27,472 nucleotides of DNA from Burkholderiaceae bacterium (GTDB lineage: Bacteria; Pseudomonadota; Gammaproteobacteria; Burkholderiales; Burkholderiaceae_C), in NCBI GenBank assembly GCA_039921765.1, contig JBDSBD010000152.1:1-27472 (forward strand), written 5' to 3'. A program made the translations under genes and the position numbers. The notes beneath the pieces are model-generated. The model did no database searches, had not been told where the DNA came from, and saw nothing but the letters and a program-made list of their open reading frames with translations. The stretch's first letter is position 1. Each line of letters starts with the position of its first letter. This document shows positions 2,372 through 20,170 of this stretch, one piece after another.

Positions 2372-4717
2372 TCAGGGCGCCGCCGGCTCACGCGCTTCGC
2401 GGATCAGGCGGGAGAGGTTGTTCGGCGACAACGGCAGCGAGACCACCTTGACGCCAAACGATTGCAAGGCATCGGCCACCGCATTGGCGATGGCCCCGCC
2501 GACGCCTTCGATGCCACCCTCGCCGACGCCTTTGGCGCCTAGCGGGTTCAGCGACGAAGGCGCCCGGTTCAGGCTGTAGGCCTCGACATTCGGGAAATCG
2601 GTGCTGGTGGGCAGCAGGTAGTCGGCGAAGCTGCCGCACATCATCTGGCCGGAGTCGTCGTAGACAAACTCCTCGAGCAGGGTGCCGCCCAGCCCCTGCA
2701 CCGTCGCGCCGATCACTTGCCCGTGGACGATCAACGGGTTGATGACGTTGCCGCAGTCCTCGACGGTGACGATGCGGACGACCTCGAGGGTCGACGTTTC
2801 CGCGTCGATCGCGACGTGGGCGATCTGCGTTCCGTACTCGAAGGTGCAGACCGTTTGCGCGAAGTGCCCGTCGGCTTGCAGAAGGCACGCTGCGGCCGTG
2901 TCGCCGCGTCCCGTCGCTTCGCAAAGCTGCTCGACCGAGACGATCGTCTCGCCGGTGTGCCGGCTCGACACGCTGCCGCGCCGGTAGGCCAGATCCCCGA
3001 GCGCCAGTCCGCTGCGTTGCGCTGCCTCGGCCAGCAGCTGCGAGACAAACGCTTCACCGACCCGCTTGACGGCGCTGCCGCCCATCACCATGCCGCGCCC
3101 GTGATAAGTGCCGAAGCCGCGCGCCACACCGGTGGTCGAGCCGTGGAAGACCTGGATCGCGGCGCAGTCCAAGCCGATCTCGTCGGCCAGGATCTGCGCG
3201 AACGAGGTCTCGTGGCCCTGCCCACTGCTCGACGCGCCGGTGAAAAGGTGCACGTCGGTCGGTGAGTGGATCTGCAGCCGGGCGTATTCGGCCGGGCCGG
3301 CGCCGCTGCTGTCGACGAAGCACGCGATGCCCACGCCATGCCACCGGCCGTCGATCTGCTTGCCGCGCAGGCTCGACAGGCCGGCATAGTCGATCTTGTC
3401 CAGCGCATGTTGCAACACGAACGGGTAGTCGCCGCTGTCGTATTCGCCGGACCCCTCGTAGGGCACCAGCGCGCCGATCCGATAGGGCATCTGCTCGGGG
3501 CGGATCAGGTTGCGCAGGCGCACCGCGGCGGCGTCGAGCCCGAGGTCGGCGGCCATCATGTCGATCAGCCGTTCGCGAAAGAAGTTGGCCTCGTAGCGCC
3601 CGGGCCCGCGAAAGGTGCCGGATGGCGTCTTGTGCGTCATCACCGCGTTGACATCGCAGGTGTAGTGCGCGATGTCGTAGGGGCCGGGCAGGAACGAGGC
3701 GGCCTTCGCCGGCACGATACCGCCGGTGGTGCGTGCGTAGGCGCCCATGTCGGCGAAGATTCTTCCGCGCAGCCCGAGGATCGTGCCGTCGCGGCGCGCG
3801 GCGATCTCGAGCTCGCAGTCCATTTCGCGCGAATGGTTCATCGCGATCAGGTTTTCACGCCGGTCCTCGATCCACTTGACGGCGCGACCCATGAGCCTGG
3901 CGACGAGCGGAATCAGCAGATCCTCCGGGTAGAACTCGCCGCGCGCACCGAAGCTGCCACCCACGTCGAGTTCGATCAGGTCGACGGCATCCTCGTCGAG
4001 GCCGAGCATCTGCGCCAGCAGGCGCCGGTTGTAGAACGGCACCTTGGTCGCGCCCCAGACCTGCAGACGCTCGCTCGCAGCGTCCCAGCGCGCCACCAGA
4101 CCGCGCGTCTCGAGCGGCACCGACGAGTGCCGGTGACAGTGGAACGTCTCCTTGCGCGTGTAGTCGGCGTTCGCGAATGCAGCGTCGGCGTCACCGCGGC
4201 GGGCGGTGTAATGGGCCGCCCGGTTGGTCCCCGCGTCCGCATGGACGAGAACCTCGTCGCGCAGCGCCGCGGCGATGCCGACGACGGCGTCGCACGCGTC
4301 GATCTCGGCGCAGACGAGGTCGGCGCCATCCTCGGCGGTGTAGCGGTCGTGCGCCACGACGACCGCGAGCGGCTCGCCGACGTAGCGCACGGTGTCCTTG
4401 GCCAGCGGCCACTGCAGACAGCGCTCGAGCCCCGCGACCGGGCCGACGCGCACCGGAATGGCCAACGCGTGTGTCGCGATGTCGGCATGCGTGAAGACCG
4501 CCAGCACGCCAGGCACGGCGAGTGCTGCGCTCGTGTCGATCGCGGTGATGCGCCCGTGCGCCAGCGGACTGCGCACGATCACCGCGTGGCACAGATCGGG
4601 CAGTTTGAAGTCATCGACGAAACAGCCGGCGCCGCGCAAGAAGCGCTCGTCTTCGTGGCGCTCGCGGGCGCGCCCGACTTCCTGGGCCGCGGGGGGCATG
4701 GCGGGGGCTTGGTTCAT
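2372..4717 (-). CDS. Xanthine dehydrogenase/CoxL-family molybdopterin-binding large subunit of a molybdenum hydroxylase
   Basis: Real start MNQAPAM at 4717 overlaps the small-subunit stop (ATGA). Motifs VGGSFGARGE, GTFRGPGRYE, SSGQGHET, GAKGVGEGG. Lacks the AYXCSFR motif of form I CO dehydrogenase. Confidence 0.92.
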   Translation of the reverse strand: MNQAPAMPPAAQEVGRARERHEDERFLRGAGCFVDDFKLPDLCHAVIVRSPLAHGRITAIDTSAALAVPGVLAVFTHADIATHALAIPVRVGPVAGLERCLQWPLAKDTVRYVGEPLAVVVAHDRYTAEDGADLVCAEIDACDAVVGIAAALRDEVLVHADAGTNRAAHYTARRGDADAAFANADYTRKETFHCHRHSSVPLETRGLVARWDAASERLQVWGATKVPFYNRRLLAQMLGLDEDAVDLIELDVGGSFGARGEFYPEDLLIPLVARLMGRAVKWIEDRRENLIAMNHSREMDCELEIAARRDGTILGLRGRIFADMGAYARTTGGIVPAKAASFLPGPYDIAHYTCDVNAVMTHKTPSGTFRGPGRYEANFFRERLIDMMAADLGLDAAAVRLRNLIRPEQMPYRIGALVPYEGSGEYDSGDYPFVLQHALDKIDYAGLSSLRGKQIDGRWHGVGIACFVDSSGAGPAEYARLQIHSPTDVHLFTGASSSGQGHETSFAQILADEIGLDCAAIQVFHGSTTGVARGFGTYHGRGMVMGGSAVKRVGEAFVSQLLAEAAQRSGLALGDLAYRRGSVSSRHTGETIVSVEQLCEATGRGDTAAACLLQADGHFAQTVCTFEYGTQIAHVAIDAETSTLEVVRIVTVEDCGNVINPLIVHGQVIGATVQGLGGTLLEEFVYDDSGQMMCGSFADYLLPTSTDFPNVEAYSLNRAPSSLNPLGAKGVGEGGIEGVGGAIANAVADALQSFGVKVVSLPLSPNNLSRLIREAREPAAP

Positions 4718-5211
4718 GTCCGCGGCGCCTCGGCGGACTGGGCACCGAGCCGGGCGGCCGCTTCGATCGCGTCGACGATCGGAAGGTAGCCGGTGCAGCG
4801 GCACAGGTTGCCCGAGATCGTGTCCCGAATCTGCGCCCGCGTGGGTTGCGGGTTCTCCTGCAGCAGCGCGTGCGCCGTCACCAGCAGGCCGGGTGTGCAA
4901 AAGCCGCACTGCAGCGCGTGACGGGTCTTGAAGCATTGCTGCAGCACCGACAGCCCGCGCGGCGGTGACAGCCCCTCGACCGTGGTGACCTGCCGGCCGT
5001 TGAGCTGCGCGGCCAGCAGCAGGCAGGCACGCGCCGACACGCCATCCAGCAGCACGGTGCAGGCGCCGCACACGCCGTGTTCGCAGCCCAGATGGGTGCC
5101 GGTGAGGTTCAGCTCGTTGCGCAGGAAGTCGGCCAGCGTCAGGCGGGGTTCGACGCAGGCCTCGACCGGCGCGCCGTTGACGAACAGCGATACGGAGATG
5201 GGTTCAGCCAT
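4714..5211 (-). CDS. (2Fe-2S)-binding small subunit (CoxS/XdhA-like)
   Basis: GCEHGVCGACTVLLDG, LQCGFCTPG and NLCRCTGY cysteine motifs for two [2Fe-2S] clusters. Confidence 0.95.
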   Translation of the reverse strand: MAEPISVSLFVNGAPVEACVEPRLTLADFLRNELNLTGTHLGCEHGVCGACTVLLDGVSARACLLLAAQLNGRQVTTVEGLSPPRGLSVLQQCFKTRHALQCGFCTPGLLVTAHALLQENPQPTRAQIRDTISGNLCRCTGYLPIVDAIEAAARLGAQSAEAPRT

Positions 5212-6088
5212 GGTGAAGCGGGTTCCTCGGGTTCAGCGCCTGCGTCAGCGCGCGTGCGGTCAGCGCTTGCACCAGCTCGCTGCGGTACTGGGCGCTCGCG
5301 TGGTGGTCGGAGCGGCATTCGACGACATGGCGCGCATTGAGTGCGGCGTTGCGCACATGGCGCTCGGTGGGCGTGCGCCCCGTCAGCTCGGCCGCGGCGG
5401 CGCGCAGCAGCAGCGGGCTGTCATTGACACCGAAGGCGACGATGCGCGCCTGCGTGCAGACGCCGCTAGGCTCGACGTCGAGCAGGCAGGCGATGCCGAC
5501 GATCGCGAAGTCGCCGTGGCGGCGCGCGATTTCCTGGAAGCCCCAGCGGCGCGTCGCCGGCCATGCCGGGAAGACCACCTGGACCAGCATTTCGGTGGGC
5601 GCCAGCGCCGTCGTGAACAGGCTGAGCGAAAACTCCGCGGCCGGCAGTCGACGGATCCCGCGGCTGCTTTGCAAGACCATCTCGGCGTCACAGGCCAGGC
5701 ACAGCGCCGGCCACTCGGCCGACGGATCGGCATAGCAAAGACTGCCGCCGATGGTGCCGCGATTGCGGATCGCCACGTGCGCGACCGATGCCATCGCGTG
5801 GTGCACCAGCGGCAGACGCTGTGCGATCAACGCGCTGGTTTCGAAGAAGCGGTGGCGCGTCATGGCACCGGCCACGAGACGCCCATCGGGTGCCATCTGC
5901 ACGCCGGCCAGCGCATCGAGCGGGTTCAGATCGATGAGTGCGGCGGGTGCGGCCAGGCGGAAGTTCAGCGCCGGCATCAGGCTTTGCCCGCCGGCCAGCA
6001 GCTTCGCGTTGTCGCCGTGCTCGCCGAGCAGCGCGAGCGCCTCGTCGACGCTGGCGGGCGAGAAGTAATCGAAAACGGGCGGCTTCAT
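5204..6088 (-). CDS. FAD-binding medium subunit (CoxM-like)
   Basis: MKPPVFDYFSP, LLAGGQSLMP, AHVAIRNRGTIGGSL and RRHGDFA motifs. Gene order M-S-L. Confidence 0.94.
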   Translation of the reverse strand: MKPPVFDYFSPASVDEALALLGEHGDNAKLLAGGQSLMPALNFRLAAPAALIDLNPLDALAGVQMAPDGRLVAGAMTRHRFFETSALIAQRLPLVHHAMASVAHVAIRNRGTIGGSLCYADPSAEWPALCLACDAEMVLQSSRGIRRLPAAEFSLSLFTTALAPTEMLVQVVFPAWPATRRWGFQEIARRHGDFAIVGIACLLDVEPSGVCTQARIVAFGVNDSPLLLRAAAAELTGRTPTERHVRNAALNARHVVECRSDHHASAQYRSELVQALTARALTQALNPRNPLHHG

Positions 6089-6218: not shown

Positions 6219-7046
6219 ATGGCATCGAAGAACACATCGAAGGCAGCGGCAGCCCGCCCCGCGACCCGGCCGTCCGGCGTCGCTGCGGCGCGCCCCGCCT
6301 CGGGCGCGTAGAGCGCGCGCAGGGTGCTCAGCGTGCTGCTGTACTTCGACGCGAACCGCCCGTTCGCCACCATCGACGAGCTGGCCCCGGCGGTGGGCGC
6401 GCCGCTCAGCACGACCTACCGTTACGCGGCGTTGCTCAAGTCCATGGGGTTCCTCGGCGACGACGGCCATGGTCGCTATTTCATCGCACCGACCCTGTTG
6501 CGGCTGTCCGATGCGGCGCGTGCGGCGATCGGCTACGCCGAGCTGGCCCGTGCCGCCGTGGACGAACTCGCCGCCCAGACCGGGGAAACCGTGCTGCTGA
6601 TCCAGCCTGTGGGTCACAACGGCGTGTGCATCGCCAAGGCCGAGTCGGCGCATTCGATGCGGCTCGCCTATGAGCTCGGTGCGGCGTTTCCGCTGCATCG
6701 CGGCGCGGCTCCGAAGGCCCTGCTCGCCCACTTGCCGGCCAACGAACGCGAGCGCTACCTCGACCATGTCGCACGCAGCGAAGCGGCGCCAGGCGACAGC
6801 TTGACTGCGTTGCGCGCCGAACTCGAACGCATCCGCGCCGACGGCGTGGCCTACAGCCGGGCCGAGATCACGTCGGGCGTGTGGGCCGTTGCGGTGCCGG
6901 TGTACCAGCGCGACAAGGCGGTGCTCGCGCTGTCGGTCGCGGGGCCGGCCTTCCGCCTGAAGAAGCCGCTGCGGCCGGCGATCGAACAGAAGGTCCGCGC
7001 GGCGGCGCAGCGGCTGTCGACGCTGCTCACCGGTCTGGTCAGCTGA
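6219..7046 (+). pseudogene. IclR-family transcriptional regulator with an in-frame TAG at 6309-6311 (or an intact shorter gene from GTG 6324)
   Basis: ATG 6219 reads MASKNTSKAAAARPATRPSGVAAARPASGA*SARRVLSVLLYF in the same frame as the 6324-7046 ORF. HTH (IDELAPAVGAPLSTTYRY) and effector domain (PLHRGAAPKALLA, GVWAVAVPV) are intact. Confidence 0.6.
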
Positions 7047-7270: not shown

Positions 7271-7348
7271 ATGACCCCGCACTGTGACCCATGCAGGCGA
7301 TGCACGCAAGGTGGCTGCGGCGGCCGTCGGCGCGGAGCTGCCGGATGA
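7271..7348 (+). CDS. Possible 25-aa Cys-rich leader peptide/uORF (MTPHCDPCRRCTQGGCGGRRRGAAG)
   Basis: GGAGGTGA SD-like sequence at 7262-7269 directly before ATG 7271; lies in the about 200-nt leader of the permease. Not in the supplied ORF track (too short). Confidence 0.25.
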   Translation: MTPHCDPCRRCTQGGCGGRRRGAAG

Positions 7349-7404
7349 GCGGGGCGCTCGGTCGCGTCGTTGTCCCGGCGGCAACAACCCAAGGAGGTCC
7401 GCCG

Positions 7405-8196
7405 ATGGCGACCAGACAAGCGAAACGCAAGCCTCGAGTCCTTCGCTCCGTGCTGGAGAGCGGTGCGCCGGTCGTGCTGGCGGCGATCCTGCTGCTCGCC
7501 TGGCAGGTCGCGGTGCCGCTGTTCGGCATCTCCGAGTTCGTGCTGCCGACGCCGTGGGCCATCGTTGCGCGCATCTGGAACGACTTCGCGCTGCTGATGC
7601 AGCACGCCTACGTCACCGGACTGGAAGTGGTGTTCGGCTTCGGCATCGCGGTCCTCGTCGGCGTGCCGACCGGTCTGACGATCTTCTATTCGCGCATCTT
7701 CGAGAAGGCGGTCTACCCGCTGCTGGTTGCACTGCAAACCATCCCGAAGGTGGTGCTGGCGCCGCTGCTGGTGCTCTACCTCGGCTACGACTGGGCGCCG
7801 AAGATCTTTCTTGCGTTGCTGATCTCGTTCTTTCCGATCGTCATCTCGACCGTCGTCGGCCTGCAGTCGCTCGAGAAGCCGATGGTCAACCTGCTGCGTT
7901 CGATGGGGGCCACCGAGATGCAGACGTTCTTCAAGCTGCGCCTGCCGCATGCGCTGCCGAGCATCTTCGGCGGCTTCAAGGTCGCGATCGGACTGGCCGT
8001 CATCGGCGCGGTGATCGGCGAGTACGTTGCCGCGGAGCGTGGCCTCGGCTACCTGCAATTGCAGGCCAGCTCGCAGTTCGACACGACGCTCAGTTTCGCC
8101 GCCGTCGTCGTCATCTCGGCGCTGGGTGTGCTGCTCTTCTCCGCCGTCAGCGCCGCCGAGAGCAAGCTGGTGTTCAAGCACGAGGAGTCCAAATGA
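7405..8196 (+). CDS. ABC transporter permease (NitT/TauT family)
   Basis: AAGGAGGT RBS at 7391-7398 before ATG 7405. Multiple hydrophobic segments, IPKVVLAP, and the EAA-like loop LLRSMGATEMQTFFKLRLPHALP. Confidence 0.92.
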   Translation: MATRQAKRKPRVLRSVLESGAPVVLAAILLLAWQVAVPLFGISEFVLPTPWAIVARIWNDFALLMQHAYVTGLEVVFGFGIAVLVGVPTGLTIFYSRIFEKAVYPLLVALQTIPKVVLAPLLVLYLGYDWAPKIFLALLISFFPIVISTVVGLQSLEKPMVNLLRSMGATEMQTFFKLRLPHALPSIFGGFKVAIGLAVIGAVIGEYVAAERGLGYLQLQASSQFDTTLSFAAVVVISALGVLLFSAVSAAESKLVFKHEESK

Positions 8197-9035
8197 GCGC
8201 GACGATGGAGGCGCTGGCCCGCGCGCCCGCCGCCCGGCATGCCGACACCGCGGCCCGGGGCGTCGCCGTTCACATCGAAGGCGTCACCAAGATCTATGAG
8301 ACGCGCCAGGGCGACGAGATCCTCGCGCTCGACCGCACCGACCTCGTCATCGAACCGTCGGAGTTTGTTGCCGTGGTCGGGCCCAGCGGGTGCGGCAAGA
8401 GCACGCTGCTGAGCCTGATCGCAGGGTTGATCCCGGTGACGTCGGGGCGCATCTTGCTTGATGCCGCCGAGGTGACGCGTCCGCACCCGAAGACCGGCGT
8501 GGTGTTCCAGTCCGACCTGCTGCTGCCATGGCGCACGGTCACCGACAACATTCTGCTGCCCATCGAGGTCAAGCGGCGCCGCAATGCCGAGTACCTGCCG
8601 CGCGTGGAACAGCTGCTCGAACAGGTGGGACTGCAGGGTTTCGGCAGCAAGTACCCGACCGAGCTGTCGGGCGGCATGCGCCAGCGCGTGGCGATCTGTC
8701 GCGCCCTCGTGCAGCAGCCCGGCCTGCTGCTGATGGACGAGCCGTTCGGCGCGCTCGACGCGCTGACGCGCGAACAGATGATCATGGACCTGCAGGCCAT
8801 GTGGCTGTCGGAGGGCAACACGGTGCTGTTCATCACGCACGGCATCGAAGAGGCGATCTTCCTGGCCGACCGCGTCATCGTGATGTCGCCGCGCCCGGGC
8901 CGCGTCGACCTGTCACTGAAGATCGACATCGAGCGGCCGCGCCGCTGGAAGGATCACACCGATCCGCGCTTCCTCGGCTATGTGGCGCAGGTGCGCGAGA
9001 TCTTCGAGGCCAAGGGCGTCCTCACCGAACGCTGA
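8193..9035 (+). CDS. ABC transporter ATP-binding protein (NitT/TauT family)
   Basis: Walker A GPSGCGKS, signature LSGGMRQR, Walker B LLMDEPFGALD, H-loop FITH. ATGA overlap with the permease stop. Confidence 0.95.
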   Translation: MSATMEALARAPAARHADTAARGVAVHIEGVTKIYETRQGDEILALDRTDLVIEPSEFVAVVGPSGCGKSTLLSLIAGLIPVTSGRILLDAAEVTRPHPKTGVVFQSDLLLPWRTVTDNILLPIEVKRRRNAEYLPRVEQLLEQVGLQGFGSKYPTELSGGMRQRVAICRALVQQPGLLLMDEPFGALDALTREQMIMDLQAMWLSEGNTVLFITHGIEEAIFLADRVIVMSPRPGRVDLSLKIDIERPRRWKDHTDPRFLGYVAQVREIFEAKGVLTER

Positions 9036-9058: not shown

Positions 9059-10156
9059 ATGCACATTGCCATCATCGGAGCCGGCGCGGGCGGTGCCGCC
9101 GCCGTCGCCGAACTCACGCTGGCCGGCCATCTGGTGACGCTGTGGAACCGCTCGGCGCAGACACTCGCGCCGTTCCAGGCGCTCGGCGGCGTGGCCTATG
9201 ACGGCGTGTTCGGTGAAGGCGTCGCGCGGCCGCGCTTGATCACCGCGGATCTCGCGCAGGCGATCACCGGCGCCGACGCAATCCTGGTGTGCCTGCCGAC
9301 GTTCTCGCATGCGGCGGTGGCACGCGCGCTGGCCGAGATCGGCGCGACGACGCTGCCGGTCGTGCTCAACCCCGGGCACACCGGCGGGGCGCTCGAATTC
9401 CGCCAGGCCTTTCGCGACGTGCGCGCCGACGTGCCGCCGGTGGCCGAGTTCTCGACGCTGACCTACGTGGCACGCAAGAACCGCCCCGACTGCGTCAGCA
9501 TCACCGGCGCGGCCAAGAAGATCCGCATCGCCGCACTGCCCGGCGGCGAGGCCGCGGCGCAGGCCGGGGCCGAGCTGTACCGCGGCGCGACGCTGATGTC
9601 CGACGTGCTGGCGTGCGACCTGTCCAACGTCAACATGGTGCTGCACCCGCCGGGCGCGGTGCTCGGTGCCGCCTGGGTCGAAGCGACCGGCGGTGAATTC
9701 ACGTTCTACGTCGAGGCAATGACGCCCGGCGTGGCGCGCGTGATGCGAACGCTCGACGACGAGCGTCGCGCGGTGGCGCGCGCCTTCGGCCACGATCTGC
9801 CGTCGCTGATCGAGGAGATGCAGGCGCTGGGCACCGTCGAGGCGTCGGTGCGCGACCTGACCGATCTGGTTGGCGCGATCTCTTCGGGCAAGGCCAACCG
9901 GCGCATCAAGGGACCCGATTCGCTGCAGCACCGCTATTACCTCGAAGATTTCGGCCACGGGCTGCTGCCGTTCCTGGCGCTGGCCGCGGCGGCGCAGGTC
10001 GCGGTGCCGGTGGCCGATTCGCTGTTCAAGCTCGGTGAATCGCTGACCGGCAACGACTACAGCGCGCGCGGCCGCACGGCGGCGCGCATGGGCATCGCCG
10101 GCCTCGACCGGCAAGGCGTGATGAATTGCGTCAGGGGGACTGCCAGTGAGTGTTGA
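9059..10156 (+). CDS. NAD(P)-dependent opine (octopine/nopaline) dehydrogenase-family protein
   Basis: Start MHIAIIGAGAGG (Rossmann GxGxxG) followed by WNRS. C-terminal family motifs NMVLHPPG, FYVEAM, RYYLEDFGHGL. Confidence 0.85.
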   Translation: MHIAIIGAGAGGAAAVAELTLAGHLVTLWNRSAQTLAPFQALGGVAYDGVFGEGVARPRLITADLAQAITGADAILVCLPTFSHAAVARALAEIGATTLPVVLNPGHTGGALEFRQAFRDVRADVPPVAEFSTLTYVARKNRPDCVSITGAAKKIRIAALPGGEAAAQAGAELYRGATLMSDVLACDLSNVNMVLHPPGAVLGAAWVEATGGEFTFYVEAMTPGVARVMRTLDDERRAVARAFGHDLPSLIEEMQALGTVEASVRDLTDLVGAISSGKANRRIKGPDSLQHRYYLEDFGHGLLPFLALAAAAQVAVPVADSLFKLGESLTGNDYSARGRTAARMGIAGLDRQGVMNCVRGTASEC

Positions 10157-11057
10157 TCCATCGAAGGTCGACTGGAGCCAGTGCGTCATCGCGGTGGTGG
10201 GCGGAGACAAGCGCGAACAGGAGATCGCCCGCCTCGCCGCCGCCACCGGCGCCCGCGTGCGCGCCCACGGCTTTCCGTGGCCCGACGCCGGGATTGCGGG
10301 CGTCACGCACGCGAGCGATGCGGCAGCGGCGTTGAAGGGCGCGCGGATCGCGCTGTTCCCGATCCCCGGCATCGCCGCCAGCGGCGCGCTGTTCGCGCCC
10401 GCCGCGCCGACGCCCATCATTCCCGACGTCGCGATGCTTCGCGGCATGCAGTCGCCGGCCCACATCATCCTCGGCTGGGGCGACGCGAATCTGAAGGCGC
10501 ACGCGCAGACGCTGGGCATCGATCTGCACGAGTACGAGTGGGACCAGGACCTGATGCTGCTGCGCGGGCCGGCCATCGTCGAGGGCCTGCTGAAGATCGT
10601 CATCGAGAACACCGCGATCACCATCCACAAGGCGCGCGTGTGCGTGGTCGGCCAGGGCACCATCGGCTTCCTGCTGACGCGCTACCTCGTCGCGCTCGGG
10701 GCGCAGGTGCATGTGGCGGCGCGCAACCCGGTGCAGCGCGCTGCGGCCTATGCGGCCTGCGCGACGGTGCATGCGCTGGACGAGTTGCCGGCGCTGGCCG
10801 GCGACCTCGACATGCTGTTCTCGTCCGTGCCGCAGCGCGTGGTCGGACGCAATGTGCTCGAGCGCCTGCGTCCGGACGCCTTGATCATCGACCTGGCGGC
10901 GCCGCCGGGTGGCGTCGACTTCGAGGCGGCGAAGGAGCTTGGGTTGAAGGCGCTGTGGACGCGTGGCCTCGGCAGCCGTGCGCCGGTCACGGTGGGTGCC
11001 AGCCAATGGTCGGGCATCCGCCCGCGCATCGAGAAAATTCTTGGAGGTCAAAGATGA
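10146..11057 (+). CDS. Dipicolinate synthase subunit A (SpoVFA/DpaA)-like NAD(P)-binding oxidoreductase
   Basis: Colinear similarity to B. subtilis SpoVFA as I recall it: IAVVGGDKREQEI, TIHKARVCVVGQG, ALGAQVHVAAR, IIDLAAPPGGVDFEAAKELGLKAL. GTG start with AGGGGA RBS. Confidence 0.85.
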   Translation: MSVDPSKVDWSQCVIAVVGGDKREQEIARLAAATGARVRAHGFPWPDAGIAGVTHASDAAAALKGARIALFPIPGIAASGALFAPAAPTPIIPDVAMLRGMQSPAHIILGWGDANLKAHAQTLGIDLHEYEWDQDLMLLRGPAIVEGLLKIVIENTAITIHKARVCVVGQGTIGFLLTRYLVALGAQVHVAARNPVQRAAAYAACATVHALDELPALAGDLDMLFSSVPQRVVGRNVLERLRPDALIIDLAAPPGGVDFEAAKELGLKALWTRGLGSRAPVTVGASQWSGIRPRIEKILGGQR

Positions 11058-12397
11058 AACGCGATCTGGTGATTCGAAACGCTCGCATGGTCGACCACGA
11101 AGGGGAATTCTTCGGCGGCATCGCGGTGCACGAAGGCCGCATCGTGATGACCGGCAACAACGACTCGTTGCCCCAGGGCCACCGCGAGATCGATGCGCAA
11201 GGGCGCGTGGTGATGCCGGGCGTGGTCGACCCGCACTGCCACCTTGGCGTGAACTACCCGTACAACGAGGACATGCGCACCGAGACGGCCGCGGCGGCCA
11301 GCGGCGGCGTGACCACCGTGCTGCTGTACATCCGCAACAAGGCCGGCTCCTATATTCCGTTCTACAAGGATCGGCGTGCGGTGGGTGAAGAGAACTCGAT
11401 GATCGATTTCGGGTTCCACTTCGGCATCCAGCGTGAAGACCACATCCACGAGATTCCGCAGATCGTCGAGCAGACCGGCGTGCGTTCGTTCAAGTGCTAC
11501 TTCGGCTACGAGACCGACAACCCGATCGGCATCGTGCCGGCGACCGACGGCTGGGTCTACGCGGCGATGCGCCACCTCGTCAAGATCCCGGGCGGCGTGC
11601 TGAGCGTGCACTGCGAAAACACCGGCATCGCGACCTGGCTCAAGGACGAGCTGATGGCCACCGGTCGCCAGGATCTGGGCGCCTACACCGAATCGCGCCC
11701 GGCCTTCTGCGAGGAAGAAACCATCAAGCGCATGTTGTTCCTCGCCGAGCGCACGAAGTGCCCGCTGCACATGGTGCACACCTCCGTCGGCCAGGGGCCG
11801 GTCCTGGCCGCCGAAGCGCGCGGGCGCGGCATCGACGTGACCGTCGAGACCTGCCCGCACTACCTGACGCGCACCTGCTACGACGCAGACCTGGACATGA
11901 CCGCCAAGATCTCACCGCCGCTGCGCGACCGCAGCGAGCTGGAAGGCCTGTGGCGAGGCATGCTCGACGGCACCGTCTACAGCCTCGGGACCGACCATGT
12001 TCCGTTCTTTCCCAAGAAGGGTGAAGACCTGTGGAAGGAAGTGCCGGGCGTCGTGTGCTTCCCGTGGGAACTGCCGCTGATGCTGCACTTCGGCGTGCAC
12101 GAGCGCGGCCTGTCGCTGTCGCGGCTGGTGCAGCTCAATTCGTATCACCCGGCGCGCCGCTTCGGCCTGTGGCCGCACAAGGGCTCGCTGCAGGCGGGCG
12201 CCGATGCCGACCTGGTGATGGTCGACATGGACGAAGAGCGCACCGTCCACCACACCGGGAACGGCCTGTGCATCTACGAAGGCTGGAAGCTCAAGGGCTG
12301 GCCTGTGATGACGGTGTCGCGCGGCGACATCGTCTACGAGAACGGACAGGTCGTCGAACGCTTCGGCGGCGGCGCGTGCGTCACCCGCCCGAAATGA
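11054..12397 (+). CDS. Cyclic amidohydrolase (dihydropyrimidinase/hydantoinase/allantoinase-like binuclear metalloenzyme)
   Basis: DPHCH (HxH), FKCYF (carboxylatable Lys), VHCEN, MVHTS, SPPLR, GTDH, GADADLV. ATGA overlap with the upstream gene. Confidence 0.9.
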   Translation: MKRDLVIRNARMVDHEGEFFGGIAVHEGRIVMTGNNDSLPQGHREIDAQGRVVMPGVVDPHCHLGVNYPYNEDMRTETAAAASGGVTTVLLYIRNKAGSYIPFYKDRRAVGEENSMIDFGFHFGIQREDHIHEIPQIVEQTGVRSFKCYFGYETDNPIGIVPATDGWVYAAMRHLVKIPGGVLSVHCENTGIATWLKDELMATGRQDLGAYTESRPAFCEEETIKRMLFLAERTKCPLHMVHTSVGQGPVLAAEARGRGIDVTVETCPHYLTRTCYDADLDMTAKISPPLRDRSELEGLWRGMLDGTVYSLGTDHVPFFPKKGEDLWKEVPGVVCFPWELPLMLHFGVHERGLSLSRLVQLNSYHPARRFGLWPHKGSLQAGADADLVMVDMDEERTVHHTGNGLCIYEGWKLKGWPVMTVSRGDIVYENGQVVERFGGGACVTRPK

Positions 12398-13071
12398 ACC
12401 TGGGCTTTCCTGCCGAACAGCGAGCCTCGTATCGCTCGACGGGATGGTGTGTGTCCGCGCAGACCATCCCCGAGTCGGTGGCGGAACCGGCAAGAACGCT
12501 GGCGCGTGAGCTGGTGCGGCGCCGCCCGCGCCAGGACATGCTGTCGGGCGTGCACAACCCGTTCGGCCACCACGCCTGCCCGAACGCAGCCTGGCGCTTT
12601 CTCGACCTCGCTGAAAGCCCCGCACTGCTCGATCCGGTGGAAAGCGTGATGGGTCCGGACCTGGTGCTGTGGGACAGCGAGCTGTACCTCGATCTGTCGG
12701 CGTGGCCGCGCGATGAAGCGCAGCAATGGCCGGTCGATCCGCTTGCCGGCACGGTGGTGTCCATCGATTTCGAGCGCCGGCGCACCGTGCTCATCGACAT
12801 CACCCGGCTGGCCGAGGTGTTCGACGCGATCGCGTTTCTGCCCGGGCCGTGCTACACGGTGCGCTACATGCCGGCGAGCTCGCGCTACAACCGCGACCCG
12901 CGGTTTGGCCCCAACCGGCTCGCCACGCAGCTTCGTCCGCTCGTGAATCACGCCATCCGACCGCTCTGGCTGGTGCGCGGCGAAGATCGCGCCGGCAACG
13001 ATTTCGTGAGCGGCTTCGCGCCGCCCGCCGCGCGCTGGGCCGATGCGGTGCGCCTTCCCCCCGAGCCATAG
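12394..13071 (+). CDS. Degenerate phytanoyl-CoA dioxygenase (PhyH)-fold protein lacking the iron-binding triad
   Basis: FLDLAESPALLDPVESVMGPDLVLWDSELY and YTVRYMPASSRYNRD...RPLWLVRGEDRAGNDF resemble PhyH-family segments. The expected WHQD reads WPRD and no distal His is evident. ATGA overlap with the amidohydrolase stop. Confidence 0.6.
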   Translation: MNLGFPAEQRASYRSTGWCVSAQTIPESVAEPARTLARELVRRRPRQDMLSGVHNPFGHHACPNAAWRFLDLAESPALLDPVESVMGPDLVLWDSELYLDLSAWPRDEAQQWPVDPLAGTVVSIDFERRRTVLIDITRLAEVFDAIAFLPGPCYTVRYMPASSRYNRDPRFGPNRLATQLRPLVNHAIRPLWLVRGEDRAGNDFVSGFAPPAARWADAVRLPPEP

Positions 13072-13086
13072 AAGAGGAGAACCATC

Positions 13087-13287
13087 ATGCCCGTCGTCAC
13101 CGTGCAAATCTGGACCGGCCGCACCACCGAGCAAAAACGCAATCTGGTGGCTGCCATCACCGACGCGATGGTCGTGCACGCCGCGTGCAAACCGGAGCAC
13201 CTGCACGTCATCATCCAGGACGTGCCCAAGGACAGCTGGGGCCGCAACGGCCGCCTCGGCATCGACAACGAACCGGAGGCCAAGTGA
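13087..13287 (+). CDS. 4-oxalocrotonate tautomerase-family protein
   Basis: 66 aa, Met-Pro start (catalytic Pro1), GRTTEQKRNLVAAITDAM, GAGGAG RBS. Confidence 0.92.
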   Translation: MPVVTVQIWTGRTTEQKRNLVAAITDAMVVHAACKPEHLHVIIQDVPKDSWGRNGRLGIDNEPEAK

Positions 13288-14276
13288 TGGCACTCGACGC
13301 ACTCGACCTGAACAAGAGCGCGCTGCTCGTCATCGACCTGCAGAACGCCTTCATCCACGACAAGGGAACGCTGGGGGTGTCCGGGGTCGACACCCAGCGC
13401 CTGTCGTCCATCGTCTCGCCGCTGGCCACGCTGATCAAGCGCTGCCAGGAGGCCGGCATGCCGGTCATCTGGACGATGCAGGAGCACTACGCGGTCGACG
13501 CGCTGCGCAAGCGCAAGAAGCTGGCCGGGCACACCGCGCGGCGCAAGCAGGTGTCGGCGCTGGCGGGCACCTGGGACGAGCAGATCGTCGACGAGCTCAA
13601 GGAGCTGGCCGCGTTCGACCCGTCGCTGGTGATCCGCAAGCACCGCTTCGGCGCGTTCTACGAGACCCGCCTGGAGCAGGTGCTGCGCATGTTCGGCACG
13701 CAGCATCTGTTCGTCGTCGGCGCCACCACCAACGCCTGCGTCGAGACCTCGATCCGCGAAGCCTATCTGCGCGACTACGACGTCGTGGCCGTCAAGGACT
13801 GCATCTCGGGCGTCAACGACGAGTGGGAGCAGACTGCGCAGCAGGTGTGGCAACAGTACTTCTGCGAGCTGCACGGCTCGGCCGACGTGCTCGGCTGGAT
13901 CGACAGGCAACAGGTGCCGCGAACGCTCGGCTACGGCCACATGCTGTTGATGGTCGAGGACGTGGCGCGTTCGACCCGCTTCTACGTCGACCAGCTGGGC
14001 TTCACGATCCGCCCGGCCAAGCCCTTGGCCGACGGCCGACCCTTCACGGCCTTCCACCAGGGTGTGGCGATCGTCGGCGGGCGCGCGCCAGCGCATCGAC
14101 AGGTGGATCACATCGCCTTCGAGGTCAACAACGTGCGCGCGTTGCGTGACAAGCTGAGAAGCTCGGCCGTGCCGTTCGAGCAGGACTTGCACGACGGGCC
14201 CTATGGCTTGACGATCTATGTGACCGATCCCGATGGGGTCCGGATCGAGCTCTACGAGGTGGGTGCCACAGCTTGA
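13287..14276 (+). CDS. Isochorismatase/cysteine hydrolase (RutB-like) fused to a C-terminal VOC/glyoxalase domain
   Basis: Asp-Lys-Cys triad in VIDLQN, RKHRFGAF, GATTNACVE. From about 13930 a VOC domain: GHMLLMVEDVARSTRFYVDQLGF, DHIAFEV, TDPDGVRIELYE. Start overlaps the tautomerase stop (TGATG). Confidence 0.9.
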   Translation: MALDALDLNKSALLVIDLQNAFIHDKGTLGVSGVDTQRLSSIVSPLATLIKRCQEAGMPVIWTMQEHYAVDALRKRKKLAGHTARRKQVSALAGTWDEQIVDELKELAAFDPSLVIRKHRFGAFYETRLEQVLRMFGTQHLFVVGATTNACVETSIREAYLRDYDVVAVKDCISGVNDEWEQTAQQVWQQYFCELHGSADVLGWIDRQQVPRTLGYGHMLLMVEDVARSTRFYVDQLGFTIRPAKPLADGRPFTAFHQGVAIVGGRAPAHRQVDHIAFEVNNVRALRDKLRSSAVPFEQDLHDGPYGLTIYVTDPDGVRIELYEVGATA

Positions 14277-14472: not shown

Positions 14473-15528
14473 TCACATGAGTTCTGCGTTGATCGCCGCC
14501 AGCGCCGCGTTGCCCGGGCACAGCTGCGCATCGGTGAGGCGGTTCAGCGGCGCGTCGACGGTGTTCAGGTGGGCATGCAGGTCCTCGGCGTCGCCGTTCA
14601 CGTACAGCAGACCGGTCAGGATCTCGCCACGCGCCTCGAACGCCGCAATGTGGCTCATCGCCGCCAGCCGGTCACCCGCGTCGTAGCCCTGCGCAAGCTT
14701 GCGCAGGCGCAGCACGCTGCCGTCGTGCTGTGTGACCTCGATGACCTCGCCGGGGGCGTACATCGCGGTGATCGGATCGCGCCGCGGCATGAAGTCGAGT
14801 CGGTTGACGGCTTCGTTGTGGGCGCGCACGTAGTCGTAGCTCTTGGTGCTGCCGGCGTGGTTGTTGAAGGCCACGCAGGGGCTGATGACGTCGATCAGCG
14901 CCGCGCCGCGGTGGCGCATCGCGCCCTTGATCAACGGCACGAGCTGCTCCTTGTCGCCTGAGAAGCTGCGTGCCACATAGCCTGCGCCGAGCTGCAGCGC
15001 GAGCGCGGCCAGGTCGATCGCGGAGTCGCTGTTGATGGCGCCCTTCTTGCTCTTGCTGCCGGGGTCGGCGGTGGCCGAGAACTGGCCTTTGGTCAGGCCG
15101 TAGACGCCGTTGTTCTCGACGATGTAGGTCATGTTCACGCCGCGCCGCATCGCGTGTGCAAACTGGCCCAGGCCGATCGACGCCGAGTCGCCGTCGCCGC
15201 TGATGCCCAGATACAGCAGCTCGCGGTTGGCCAGGTTGGCACCGGTCACGACCGAGGGCATGCGCCCGTGCACCGAGTTGAAGCCGTGCGAGTTGCCGAG
15301 AAAATAGTCGGGCGTCTTCGACGAGCAGCCGATGCCCGACAGCTTGGCGACGCGGTGCGGCTCGATGTCGAGCTCCCAGCAGGCCTGCACGAGCGCGGCC
15401 GAGATCGAATCGTGGCCGCAGCCGGCGCACAAGGTGCTGATCTTGCCCTCGTAGTCGCGCCGCGTGAAACCGAGCTTGTTGGCGGGCAGGGTCGGGTGGT
15501 GGAGCTTGGGCTTGGCGAGGTAGGTCAT
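14473..15528 (-). CDS. korB: 2-oxoacid:ferredoxin (acceptor) oxidoreductase subunit beta
   Basis: Start MTYLAKPKLHHP. LCAGCGHD, SGIGCSSK, TPP-binding GDGDSASIG...ENNGVYGLTKGQ. Confidence 0.92.
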   Translation of the reverse strand: MTYLAKPKLHHPTLPANKLGFTRRDYEGKISTLCAGCGHDSISAALVQACWELDIEPHRVAKLSGIGCSSKTPDYFLGNSHGFNSVHGRMPSVVTGANLANRELLYLGISGDGDSASIGLGQFAHAMRRGVNMTYIVENNGVYGLTKGQFSATADPGSKSKKGAINSDSAIDLAALALQLGAGYVARSFSGDKEQLVPLIKGAMRHRGAALIDVISPCVAFNNHAGSTKSYDYVRAHNEAVNRLDFMPRRDPITAMYAPGEVIEVTQHDGSVLRLRKLAQGYDAGDRLAAMSHIAAFEARGEILTGLLYVNGDAEDLHAHLNTVDAPLNRLTDAQLCPGNAALAAINAELM

Positions 15529-15563
15529 GTTGCTCTGCATGTTCGTTTGGCGCGCGCTGCGGA

Positions 15564-15718
15564 CGCCGGGTGGCCGACTACGCTCATGCCCGGGGACAGC
15601 GCCCCGGGCGCTCGCCAGGCACGAACAGTTCTCAGGACTGTTTGTGTCCGGGCTCGCTCCCCCGGAACGGGCTTCGCCCATTCCTCCTCCTTTACTTCGC
15701 TCCGCCGGCCACCCGACG
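15564..15718 (-). repeat. Structured palindromic repeat unit A1 (minus-strand copy, carries a 69-bp nested insert)
   Basis: 15-bp terminal stem 15564-15578/15704-15718 enclosing GGAGCGAAGTAAAGGAGGAGG, hairpin GGAATGGGC-GAA-GCCCGTTCC, GGGGGA and CATGAGCG on the minus strand. Confidence 0.75.
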
Positions 15719-15769
15719 GCTTCGGCCATCCCCCCGCGGAGCTTGCCGTCGAAAAGCGGCGACCGTCGT

Positions 15770-15877
15770 AGATCAGGTCGGTGGGGTGTTCTGTGGAGCG
15801 AAGTAAAGGAGGAGGCGTCGGCCGTAGGCCGGCGACGGGGGACATGAGCGGAACAGAACACCTCGCCGGCCTGATCT
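15770..15877 (+). repeat. Structured palindromic repeat unit A2 (plus-strand copy)
   Basis: 25-bp terminal stem 15770-15794/15853-15877 (three G-T wobbles, no true mismatch) enclosing GGAGCGAAGTAAAGGAGGAGG (15795-15815), hairpin CGTCGGCC-GTA-GGCCGGCG, GGGGGA and CATGAGCG. Confidence 0.78.
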
Positions 15878-15910
15878 CGCTCGGAGCAACAAGTGAGAAC
15901 GCCGCCATCA

Positions 15911-17773
15911 TCACGCAGCCTGCTCGTTCTTGATCGGCGCGGCTTCGAACGCCCGCACGTGCTCCGCGATCGCCGCGGTGATGAAGCGTGCGGTGATCGG
16001 CGTGCCGTCGAAATGCAGGATCGGCACCAGGCGCGCCGGATTCACTTCCTGCTCGGTGACGAGCAAGGTGCGCAGTTGTGCGTCGCGGTTTTGCTCGACC
16101 ACAAAGACCGTGTCGTGCTCGGCAATGAAGGCGTCGACCATGGCGCTGAACGGGAACGCGCGGATGCGCAGCCCGTCCACCGCGATGGCCTGCGCCTGCA
16201 GGGCCTCGAAGGCTTCGTTCATCGCCGGGCTGGTCGAGCCGAAGTAGATGACGCCCAAGCGTGTGGCCTCGGCCGCGTTGCGCCGCAGCGGCTGCGGCAC
16301 CAGCGTCTTGGCGGTCTCGAACTTGGTCAGCAGCCGCTGCACGTTGTAGAGATAGTCGTCCCCGGTCTCGGAGTAGCGCGCATAGGCGTCGCGGGTGGTG
16401 CCGCGCGTGAAGAAGGCGCCCTTGTCGGGATGCGTGCCGGGGTAGGTGCGGTACGGGATGCCGTCGCCGTCGACGTCGAGGTAGCGGCCGAAGTCGCGGC
16501 CCGCATCGAGCTCGGCGGCCGTCATCACCTTGCCCCGATCCATTTGCGTCGTGTCGTCCCAGGCGAGCGGCTCGCACAGACGGTGGTTCATGCCGATGTC
16601 GAGGTCGGTCATCAGGAACACCGGCGTTTGCAGCCGGTCGGCGAGGTCGAAGCATTTCGCGCCGAACTCGAAGCACTCGGTCGGGTCTTCGGGGAACAGC
16701 AGCACGTGCTTGGTGTCGCCGTGCGACGCGTAGGCGCAGCTGAGGATGTCGGCCTGCTGGGTGCGCGTGGGCATGCCGGTGCTCGGACCGCCGCGCTGCA
16801 CGTTGATGAGGGTCACCGGGATCTCGGCAAAGTAGGCCAGGCCGATGAACTCGGTCATCAGGGATACCCCCGGGCCCGAGGTGCAGGTGAAGGCGCGCGC
16901 CCCGTTCCAGCCGGCACCGGTGACGATGCCGATCGAGGCGATCTCGTCTTCGGCCTGCACGATCGCGAACCTGTTCTTGCCGGTGTCCTTGTCGACGCGC
17001 AGCTTGCTGCAGTACTTCTGAAAGGCTTCGGCCACGGATGACGAGGGCGTGATCGGGTACCAGGCGCAGACGGTCGCGCCGCCGTACACACAGCCCAGCG
17101 CCACCGCCGCGTTGCCTTCCATGAAGATGCGCCGGCCGACCGCATCGCGCCGCTCCACCTTCAGGCCGAGCGCGTCGTCGAAGTACTCCTGACCGTGGTG
17201 CAGCCCCATCATGAAGGCATCGAGGTTGGGCTGGATCAACCTGGCCTTGCCCTTGAACTGCTCGCCCAGCAGGGTGGCGATGACTTCGGGCTCGATGCCG
17301 AGCAGCGCCGCGAGCACGCCGACATAGACGATGTTCTTCAGCAACTGGCGCTCGCGCGGGTCGTTGTAGCGCGTTGCGCACAGGTCGGCGAGCGGCACGC
17401 CGAGCACGTGGATGTCGTCGCGCAGTCCCGTGACCGGCATCGGCTTGGACGAGTCGTACAGCAGGTAGCCACCGGGTTCGATCTCGGCCAGGTCGCGCGC
17501 CCAGGTCTGCGGGTTCATCGCGATCATCAGATCCACGCCGCCGCGCCGGCCGAGCCAGCCGCGCTCGCTGACACGCACCTCGTACCAGGTCGGCAGGCCC
17601 TGGATGTTGCTCGGGAAGATGTTGCGCGGGCTCACCGGCACGCCCATGCGCAGCAGGCTGCGCGCGAACAACTCGTTGGCCGAGGCCGAACCCGAGCCGT
17701 TGACGTTGGCGAACTTGACGACGAAGTCGTTGAGGGCTTCGATGCGATTCTTGGTTGGGGTGGTGGGGGTCAT
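15911..17773 (-). CDS. korA: 2-oxoacid:acceptor oxidoreductase subunit alpha (gamma-alpha fusion)
   Basis: FANVNGSGSASAN, YPITPSS, QAEDEIA, TSGPGVSLM, QRGGPSTGMPT. Confidence 0.93.
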   Translation of the reverse strand: MTPTTPTKNRIEALNDFVVKFANVNGSGSASANELFARSLLRMGVPVSPRNIFPSNIQGLPTWYEVRVSERGWLGRRGGVDLMIAMNPQTWARDLAEIEPGGYLLYDSSKPMPVTGLRDDIHVLGVPLADLCATRYNDPRERQLLKNIVYVGVLAALLGIEPEVIATLLGEQFKGKARLIQPNLDAFMMGLHHGQEYFDDALGLKVERRDAVGRRIFMEGNAAVALGCVYGGATVCAWYPITPSSSVAEAFQKYCSKLRVDKDTGKNRFAIVQAEDEIASIGIVTGAGWNGARAFTCTSGPGVSLMTEFIGLAYFAEIPVTLINVQRGGPSTGMPTRTQQADILSCAYASHGDTKHVLLFPEDPTECFEFGAKCFDLADRLQTPVFLMTDLDIGMNHRLCEPLAWDDTTQMDRGKVMTAAELDAGRDFGRYLDVDGDGIPYRTYPGTHPDKGAFFTRGTTRDAYARYSETGDDYLYNVQRLLTKFETAKTLVPQPLRRNAAEATRLGVIYFGSTSPAMNEAFEALQAQAIAVDGLRIRAFPFSAMVDAFIAEHDTVFVVEQNRDAQLRTLLVTEQEVNPARLVPILHFDGTPITARFITAAIAEHVRAFEAAPIKNEQAA

Positions 17774-17793
17774 TTCATTTGTCCCTTGCGATA

Positions 17794-18133
17794 GCCCGCC
17801 GGTGCGCCCGGCCGGCGGTCACTTTCATTTGCTGGCCCCAATGAAAGTAACCAAAGCAAAGGGCCTGAACACGATCTGACTGGTGAATAGGGCAACCGGG
17901 TCCGGCTGTTGAAGGGCCATGGGTTCCCGAGCCAGCTGCTCGCTGTCCGGCAGATCTTGCGAGCGGTTCTTGGTGGCGCTTGTCAAACGCGCCGACGGTG
18001 TACGCTGCGTCCACGTTCACCAGCCGTACTTTGAATGCAGATGCACGGGATGATCGTGTTTGGCTCACTTCTTGGGTGACTTTCTTCTGAGCCAGCAGAA
18101 GAAGGTTACTCGCCCGCCGGGGTGAAACCCGGC
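17794..18133. repeat. MITE/REPIN-like element B: two imperfect inverted arms of about 80 bp around a 175-bp core
   Basis: Left arm 17794-17876 and right arm 18052-18133 are related as reverse complements (AACACGATC/GATCGTGTT; GTTACTTTC..GCCAGCA..GAAAGT). Each arm has its own 13-14 bp hairpin (17817-17852; 18076-18109). Confidence 0.7.
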
Positions 18134-18231
18134 GCGCTGCCGCAAGCAACACCGCAGGTTGACAATCAAACCCGGCGCGCTGCCGCAAGCAGGCGGCACC
18201 GCCTGCTGACGCAGACCGGCGCGCTACCGCA
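18125..18231 (+). repeat. Three direct repeats with about 43-44 bp period
   Basis: AAACCCGGCGCGCTGCCGCAAGCA at 18125-18148 and 18168-18191 (identical); degenerate third copy ACCGGCGCGCTACCGCA at 18215-18231. Confidence 0.8.
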
Positions 18232-18249
18232 CCAGCAACCAAGCCCATG

Positions 18250-20088: not shown

Positions 20089-20170
20089 CGAGTCCCTTTC
20101 CGCGCGCTCGTGCCGAAGTGCAATTGCCATCGAACCAACGCGCTTGTTCTGCGCCTGCTTGCGTCAGGCC

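Follow-up and report, generated by a model that had tools for sequence, protein, structure and literature searches.

We conclude that a gene in the DNA of a soil bacterium of the Burkholderiaceae encodes a protein that has the fold of DpaA (SpoVFA), subunit A of dipicolinate synthase, yet is not a dipicolinate synthase subunit. The DNA is contig JBDSBD010000152.1 of assembly GCA_039921765.1, positions 1 to 27,472 of the forward strand (the whole stretch of 27,472 nucleotides is called the window here), and the gene, which we refer to as the DpaA-like gene, occupies positions 10146-11057 on the + strand. Profile cut-offs, phylogeny, searches for the partner subunit DpaB (SpoVFB) and the nature of the host all gave negative answers to the question of dipicolinate synthesis. 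The protein belongs to an uncharacterised sister group of DpaA, outside the DpaA equivalog, and its constant companions are a tautomerase of the 4-oxalocrotonate tautomerase (4-OT) family and an enzyme of the VOC fold. We consider it probable, if by a modest degree, that the protein is an NAD(P)(H)-dependent oxidoreductase, independent of DpaB, whose target is a C=N bond, or an activated C=C bond, beside a ring nitrogen in the catabolism of an N-heterocycle or cyclic imino acid. The general part of this proposal, a catabolic oxidoreductase that works without DpaB, is much safer than the assignment of a particular bond.

The open reading frame (ORF) encodes a full-length DpaA-fold protein of 303 amino acids, in which a DpaA_N domain is followed by a Rossmann domain. 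It is intact and begins with a GTG codon that has the sequence GGGGGA 6 nt upstream. The start codon is right, because close homologues of 303 amino acids align over 99-100% of the protein, and the G+C contents of the three codon positions (0.72/0.50/0.87, in a window of 68% G+C) are those of a genuine coding gene. The original prediction, made by a model from the sequence of the window without database searches, held that the protein resembles DpaA along its whole length, and this was borne out. Pfam DpaA_N (PF16924) matches residues 15-130 with 64.1 bits against a gathering threshold of 29.2, and the NCBIfam profiles DpsA and spore_dpaA align with residues 13-284. DpaA remains the best profile match and no other dehydrogenase family comes ahead of it; the remaining Pfam matches are to generic NAD(P)-binding Rossmann domains (residues 158-257), including 2-Hacid_dh_C and Shikimate_DH. 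The only solved relatives found by a sequence search of the PDB are the dipicolinate synthase A chains of Bacillus subtilis (2rir, E = 3e-29) and Bacillus halodurans (3d4o, E = 1e-26). An AlphaFold (AF2) model built from 60 sequences has a predicted local distance difference test score (pLDDT) of 94.6 and superposes on both chains with a template modelling (TM) score of 0.84, and the next-nearest folds are those of transhydrogenase domain I and alanine dehydrogenase (TM about 0.65).

Although the fold is that of DpaA, the protein falls below both NCBI equivalog cut-offs, with 205 bits against 261 for the DpsA model (NF006162) and 183 against 320 for the spore_dpaA model (TIGR02853). Three DpaA genes that are directly followed by dpaB served as positive controls, and all of them pass the NF006162 cut-off: those of Bacillus velezensis (431 bits), Monoglobus pectinilyticus (298 bits) and the metagenomic locus P0189 (364 bits), where the operon reads dapB-dpaA-dpaB-asd-aspartokinase-dapA. 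Four other homologues without DpaB score 194-221 bits on the same model. In an unrooted IQ-TREE phylogeny of 75 sequences, obtained by a quick search, the three DpaB-linked references lie inside one clade of 34 rows with an SH-aLRT (Shimodaira-Hasegawa-like approximate likelihood ratio test) support of 100. The window protein is not part of that clade and groups instead within one of 17 rows (support 93) from Proteobacteria and Acidobacteriota whose members include Pandoraea, Variovorax, Rhodoplanes, Afifella, Shinella, Aminobacter and two metagenome-assembled genomes (MAGs) of Acidobacteriota.

The original prediction noted that the window has no SpoVFB-like gene and proposed a genome-wide search for the partner. 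We found none: the DpaB/SpoVFB profile TIGR02852 has no match at E <= 0.01 in the window or elsewhere in its own genome, a 2.83-Mb soil MAG that is 76% complete, and in five larger carrier genomes (3.9-7.4 Mb) no match exceeds 21.7 bits, where the cut-off is 229. The only control genome above that cut-off is Bacillus subtilis. A search for sequencing runs turned up soil DNA metagenomes only, with no RNA run among them. In the annotated loci that were examined, no dpaB is annotated beside the DpaA-like gene; the 80 loci used below for neighbour counts were not searched for dpaB. The view that the host does not form spores also held, in that the nearest loci come from MAGs of Burkholderiales and Alcaligenaceae and the Spo0A profile finds nothing above its cut-off in the host genome. 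Nor did we see a gene context of the dapA/asd/dapG type around the DpaA-like gene, which is accompanied by an importer and hydrolases instead.

A genuine dipicolinate synthase subunit could still be imagined, one that makes dipicolinate together with a DpaB that is encoded elsewhere or missing from the assembly, or with another flavoprotein in place of DpaB. The similarity to DpaA over the full length, the RefSeq name of the homologues ('dipicolinate synthase subunit DpsA') and the incompleteness of the MAG would all fit it. We regard this as scarcely credible, since the protein misses both cut-offs whereas every DpaB-linked control passes, stands outside the DpaB-linked clade, has no DpaB above the cut-off in the five carrier genomes, lacks both the dapA/asd/dapG context and Spo0A, and is encoded in a catabolic operon led by an importer.

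The residues of the protein point to an active enzyme with a ligand of its own. Residues conserved family-wide, in canonical DpaA as well, are Gly19-Gly20-Asp21, Arg23, Glu146-Gly147, Thr159, His161, the GxGxxG dinucleotide-binding motif at 169-174 (GQGTIG in the window protein, intact), Ala192-Arg193, Asp249, Pro254-Gly255-Gly256 and Asp258. The window protein has all of them, so that there is no sign of a dead enzyme, and nothing suggests that it is other than catalytically intact, as far as can be judged from sequence. Other positions set the group apart from canonical DpaA. Arg140, Trp271, Arg273, Gln287 and Trp288 are present in the window protein, invariant in 31 members of the clade and different in canonical DpaA, and Arg278 is nearly invariant in the clade of the window protein; the canonical counterparts of Arg140, Trp271, Arg273 and Arg278 are Asn, Leu, Leu and Val. 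The three additional arginines (140, 273 and 278) would fit an anionic substrate with at least one carboxylate. Ala192-Arg193 ends the second Rossmann strand, where NAD-specific enzymes have an acidic residue, and may thus hint at a preference for NADP(H).

Compared with DpaA/SpoVFA, then, the window protein has the same two-domain fold at 27% identity and shares DpaA_N and the motifs GGDxR, E-G, TxH, GxGxxG, A-R and D..PGG.D; it differs in its missing DpaB partner, in a catabolic context instead of one of sporulation or lysine synthesis, in its scores below the curated cut-offs, in its separate clade and in the four substitutions just named. The alanine dehydrogenase/transhydrogenase family AlaDh_PNT (PDB 1l7e, 4dio and 3p2y), which is the next fold, likewise has a cleft between two domains and carries NAD(P) on a C-terminal Rossmann domain. 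Identity to its members is only 14-18%, the window protein is shorter, and the catalytic Lys/His arrangement of that family is missing from it as far as the sequence allows this to be seen.

Eight translationally coupled genes on the + strand, linked by short overlaps or gaps, make up the operon, and the DpaA-like gene is number four among them; the overlaps at the junctions are 4, 11, 4, 4 and 1 nt. The operon begins with an ABC permease (7291-8196; Pfam BPD_transp_1, with an SsuC/TauC-like NCBIfam match below cut-off) and, joined to it by an ATGA overlap, an ABC ATPase (8193-9035; Pfam ABC_tran). The importer probably also includes the substrate-binding protein of the NMT1/SsuA type encoded upstream on the + strand (1311-2330; Pfam NMT1, 125 bits). 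The third gene (9059-10156) encodes an opine-dehydrogenase-like (OpDH-like) protein that matches Pfam Octopine_DH with 122 bits and, over its full length, PDB 1bg6, the N-(1-D-carboxyethyl)-L-norvaline dehydrogenase of Arthrobacter sp. 1C, with E = 2.5e-56. This true opine dehydrogenase is the nearest relative of the OpDH-like neighbour and not of the DpaA-like protein, and the match indicates that imine or secondary-amine chemistry is present in the operon. Unlike opine systems, the window has no genes for opine synthesis, Ti-plasmid functions or metallophores. The stop codon of the OpDH-like gene falls 11 nt inside the DpaA-like gene, and an identical 11-nt overlap is found in loci L003 and L004. 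A complex prediction for the two proteins scored 0.00 and gave no answer either way.

An ATGA overlap joins the stop of the DpaA-like gene to the start of the fifth gene (11054-12397), which encodes a cyclic amidohydrolase of the hydantoinase/dihydropyrimidinase/allantoinase type (PDB 1gkr, an L-hydantoinase, E = 1.5e-61). Its NCBIfam matches to allantoinase and dihydropyrimidinase are all below cut-off. Ring opening of the enamidase type was considered and seems unlikely, the protein being nearest to hydantoinase, allantoinase and dihydropyrimidinase. A further ATGA overlap leads into the sixth gene (12394-13071), for a conserved protein of 225 amino acids that has no Pfam or NCBIfam match; its AF2 model (pLDDT 89) has a weak resemblance, by Foldseek, to the 2-oxoglutarate-dependent oxygenases CytC3 and PhyH (TM about 0.5, E = 1e-5). 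The invariant residues of this protein include His54-Asn55, Asp89, Trp93-Asp94, Arg157 and Arg167, and no HxD...H triad is obvious among them. The seventh gene (13087-13287) encodes a 4-OT family tautomerase of 66 amino acids (Pfam Tautomerase, 60 bits), with a proline directly after the start methionine; NCBIfam 4-OT models score near or below cut-off. At a TGATG junction follows the eighth gene (13287-14276), in which an isochorismatase-family amidase resembling RutB and biuret hydrolase (Pfam Isochorismatase, 132 bits; PDB RutB 8bkd, E = 2e-21) is fused to a VOC domain (Pfam Glyoxalase, 58 bits).

Divergent from this operon, on the - strand, lies a second one (2372-6088) for a molybdenum (Mo) hydroxylase, with FAD (5204-6088), 2Fe-2S (4714-5211) and Mo (2372-4717) subunits assigned by Pfam and an ATGA overlap. 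Of the solved structures, those of 6-hydroxypseudooxynicotine dehydrogenase (E = 2.5e-138) and quinoline 2-oxidoreductase come closest to it, and both enzymes hydroxylate N-heteroaromatic rings. The degradative setting that the original prediction had ascribed to the gene is therefore upheld, by an operon that is led by an importer and contains hydrolases, with a Mo hydroxylase divergent from it.

Gene neighbourhoods were compared at the 80 best genome loci, over as much as 10 kb to either side, with the proteins of the window and of loci L002, L003 and L007 as queries. The 4-OT tautomerase is found in 77 of the 80 loci and a small VOC protein in 69, whereas an adjacent OpDH-like gene is found in 41. 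Less frequent are a GntR regulator (39 loci), parts of the ABC importer (24-36 loci, the NMT1-type binding protein in 24), an M24 hydrolase (32), the cyclic amidohydrolase (30), an MR_MLE enzyme (28), the isochorismatase (28), the 225-amino-acid protein (27), a split thiamine pyrophosphate (TPP) enzyme resembling sulfopyruvate decarboxylase (23) and the Mo hydroxylase (18). Two layouts recur, a long one like that of the window and a short one that consists of the DpaA-like gene, the tautomerase and the VOC gene, often with binding proteins of the TctC type. The long layout is kept even beside a homologue of only 57% identity. The window has the neighbourhood of its clade, with the tautomerase (13087-13287) and the VOC domain (within 13287-14276) on the same strand as the DpaA-like gene. 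The MR_MLE and M24 genes were not found in the window's MAG, which is incomplete, with the queries used. The split TPP enzyme (positions 9725-11048 of L003, and 23 further loci) has alpha- and beta-like parts of sulfopyruvate/phosphonopyruvate decarboxylase, both below cut-off, and recurs near the DpaA-like gene along with the MR_MLE and M24 genes.

The VOC domain is also found within the DpaA-like protein itself. Fusion proteins of about 428 amino acids with a C-terminal VOC domain form 12 clusters at 90% identity in assemblies from ENA, NCBI, JGI and Logan (metagenomic entries P0132 and P0272-P0282; also P0142), and in one protein of 848 amino acids the VOC domain precedes the DpaA-like part. 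These fusions tie the two activities together. The OpDH-like partner is looser. In five genomes without the adjacent gene the only OpDH relatives are paralogues of 38-41% identity (apparently about 190 kb from the DpaA-like gene in the sole case with comparable contigs), so that an OpDH in the same operon is not obligatory. Thus, of the original description of the enzyme as stand-alone, the absence of DpaB stands; the enzyme is nevertheless coupled to the OpDH-like gene in the window and, across the family, to the tautomerase and the VOC protein.

Nor is the gene an isolated case. More than 2000 proteins match it at E <= 1e-5, the top 120 of them with more than 70% identity, and a pattern built from an alignment of 8 close sequences found a close relative in 320 of 185,579 species genomes. 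Large though it is, the protein family is rare and unevenly spread: the DpaA-like gene is absent from all of 24 genomes of the same taxonomic family and present in only 1 of 16 that belong to other families in the order, and DpaA_N has a match in 1 of 400 evenly sampled genomes of the phylum. Copies from Acidobacteriota nest among proteobacterial sequences, that of a Terriglobales MAG (L050) by Rhodoplanes and that of a Vicinamibacterales MAG (L063) by Variovorax, a pattern that indicates horizontal transfer of the gene between phyla. The Vicinamibacterales locus retains the long operon layout up to the edge of its contig. Cultured carriers of the cluster include Aminobacter aminovorans, Shinella sp. 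HZN7, Variovorax ureilyticus, Pandoraea terrae, Afifella pfennigii and Rhodoplanes species, and in Aminobacter, Shinella and Phyllobacterium the gene resides on megaplasmids.

In Shinella sp. HZN7 (plasmid pShin-03, positions 16247-17620 of L095) and A. aminovorans (plasmid pAA01, positions 16183-17535 of L096), a cytosine-deaminase-like gene lies at the flank of the cluster where the window has the Mo hydroxylase, followed by genes for a GntR regulator, RidA and a CobW-like GTPase. Because enzymes of the cytosine deaminase type and of this Mo hydroxylase type both turn a ring carbon next to nitrogen into C=O, the exchange suggests that the two might be alternative entries into one pathway.

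The folds nearest to the protein, the relationship of the OpDH-like protein to a true opine dehydrogenase, and the presence of a tautomerase, a C=O-making enzyme, a ring opener and an amidase together lead us to favour reductive ring catabolism. In the alanine dehydrogenase and transhydrogenase folds, hydride passes to imines or from one nicotinamide to another. Canonical DpaA acts on a cyclic imino-dicarboxylate, and enzymes of the tautomerase family shift protons between enol and keto or between enamine and imine forms. We postulate that, in the lineage of the window, the Mo hydroxylase would first place an oxo group on the ring, the cytosine-deaminase-like protein serving as the maker of the ring C=O in Shinella and Aminobacter. 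The 4-OT-type tautomerase would fix the tautomeric form (imine or enamine, keto or enol), and the OpDH-like and DpaA-like enzymes would carry out redox steps. The latter would most likely reduce or oxidise a C=N bond, or an activated C=C bond, by a carboxylate-bearing ring nitrogen, with a nicotinamide cofactor that is probably NADP(H). The hydantoinase-type amidohydrolase could then open the ring and the RutB-like amidase could release ammonia. The small VOC-fold enzyme would be, like the tautomerase, a constant functional partner of the DpaA-like enzyme. An oxidoreductase of imines or ring bonds that depends on NAD(P)(H) is the most reasonable reading of a DpaA homologue without DpaB in a catabolic operon, and the cyclic imine/dihydropyridine oxidoreductase of the original prediction is supported to that extent.

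Known reductive routes offer a parallel. Uracil degradation proceeds through dihydropyrimidine dehydrogenase, dihydropyrimidinase and then a carbamoyl amidase; orotate is broken down by way of dihydroorotate, and 6-hydroxynicotinate by way of tetrahydro-6-oxonicotinate and enamidase. The long layout resembles these routes in its apparent sequence of an oxo-heterocycle, reduction of a ring double bond, opening of a cyclic amide and hydrolysis of a linear amide. In contrast to the window operon, the reductases of those routes are flavin or iron-sulfur enzymes, with no DpaA fold and no tautomerase-VOC pair, and no enzyme of the operon reaches the equivalog cut-off for the uracil, orotate or 6-hydroxynicotinate route. 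As candidate substrates we considered nicotinate/6-hydroxynicotinate, orotate, creatinine/N-methylhydantoin, opine lactams, piperidine-2,6-dicarboxylate and hydroimidazolone adducts, and none of these explains all of the conserved genes. We also speculate that the 4-OT tautomerase and the VOC protein could join the DpaA-fold enzyme in a hitherto unrecognised three-enzyme unit for the nicotinamide-dependent saturation of a hydroxylated N-heterocyclic carboxylate, replacing the flavin/iron-sulfur reductases of the known routes for pyrimidines, orotate and nicotinate. On that view, spore dipicolinate synthase would run the reverse chemistry, with DpaB as the electron sink. This extended scheme is rather unlikely to be correct as a whole.

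Several considerations weigh against reductive ring catabolism as the role of the enzyme. The short layout lacks both ring-opening hydrolases, and an open-chain intermediate may be the substrate. What canonical DpaA contributes to dipicolinate synthase is not settled either, hence the analogy to it is weak. The OpDH-like neighbour fits acyclic secondary amines as well as it fits rings, and the incomplete MAG means that the absence of DpaB from the window's own genome is not proven. We found no paper on DpaA homologues without DpaB or on the tautomerase/OpDH/hydantoinase cluster, and no family member has a measured substrate, cofactor or activity.

Some of these points lead to other functions. 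The pathway could degrade an acyclic, opine-type iminodiacid or an N-substituted amino acid, with the DpaA-like protein as a second secondary-amine or amino-acid dehydrogenase that works in the manner of alanine or saccharopine dehydrogenase. The close match of the OpDH-like neighbour to a true opine dehydrogenase (E = 2.5e-56) and the alanine dehydrogenase/PNT folds as next best would agree with this, and the recurring genes for MR_MLE-type epimerase-like, M24 and ComDE-like 2-oxoacid decarboxylase proteins suit N-carboxyalkyl amino acids. However, it is hard to fit in a Mo hydroxylase of the heteroaromatic type, a cytosine-deaminase-like gene and a hydantoinase-type amidohydrolase, and in about half of the loci the adjacent OpDH is missing. 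We hold this function to be unlikely, though worth keeping in mind. An improbable alternative places the enzyme downstream of the hydrolases, as a 2-oxoacid or 2-hydroxyacid dehydrogenase on the ring-opened skeleton. It would accord with the 2-Hacid_dh_C and Shikimate_DH matches on the Rossmann domain, with D-lactate dehydrogenases among the fold matches, with a short layout that has no ring-opening enzyme and with the 2-oxo or enol acids that such tautomerases normally use. But those matches are confined to the generic NAD domain, the N-terminal domain is specific to DpaA, and the TM score to D-lactate dehydrogenase is only about 0.45, against 0.84 for DpaA.

It is more improbable still that the protein never touches the substrate and acts as a hydride-relay subunit, in the way of transhydrogenase domain I, feeding a partner enzyme as DpaA may feed DpaB. 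PNT domain I is indeed the nearest fold after DpaA, canonical DpaA requires a partner, and the DpaA-like gene is translationally coupled to the OpDH-like gene in the window. However, the OpDH-like gene is missing beside the DpaA-like gene in 39 of the 80 loci, and the five such genomes that were searched have only the distant paralogues described above. The clade-specific invariant arginines, moreover, suggest a small anionic ligand of the protein's own. An oxidoreductase that acts directly on a ring substrate remains the function that we favour.

The distinction between DpaA and its DpaB-less relatives matters for annotation. RefSeq (NZ_CP015739.1, NZ_CP015006.1 and others) labels such proteins 'dipicolinate synthase subunit DpsA', and the Shinella protein that bears this name scores 194 bits against a model cut-off of 261. 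The label is likely a propagated misannotation. Database entries so named (dipicolinate synthase subunit A/DpsA) run to thousands across Proteobacteria, Acidobacteriota, Actinomycetota and further phyla; lacking DpaB and standing outside the DpaB-linked clade, they cannot be that enzyme. The name hides a separate enzyme family and a catabolic pathway for a nitrogen compound in soil and freshwater, of which the window provides an instance with a Mo hydroxylase. Were the substrate identified, the DpaA fold itself would for the first time have a defined chemistry, and since several cultured strains carry the cluster the question is directly testable.

Other branches of DpaA-like proteins without DpaB have neighbours of other kinds: genes for a creatininase, an M20 peptidase and a FAD_binding_2 flavoprotein, or an old-yellow-enzyme gene, as seen at loci L094 (P0156) and L093 (P0154). 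The DpaA fold would seem to be recurrently tied to contexts of cyclic-amide chemistry or ene reduction.

The window contains further genes around the two operons. A regulator with GntR and FCD domains (Pfam) is encoded near its start (22-798, - strand), and an IclR-family regulator (6324-7046, + strand; Pfam IclR_C and HTH_IclR) lies between the Mo-hydroxylase operon and that of the DpaA-like gene. Downstream of the latter, positions 14473-20130 on the - strand hold a 2-oxoacid:ferredoxin oxidoreductase pair (POR/POR_N, TPP_enzyme_C), together with a GltD-like protein that has the iron-sulfur module of dihydropyrimidine dehydrogenase domain II and a 4Fe-4S dicluster.

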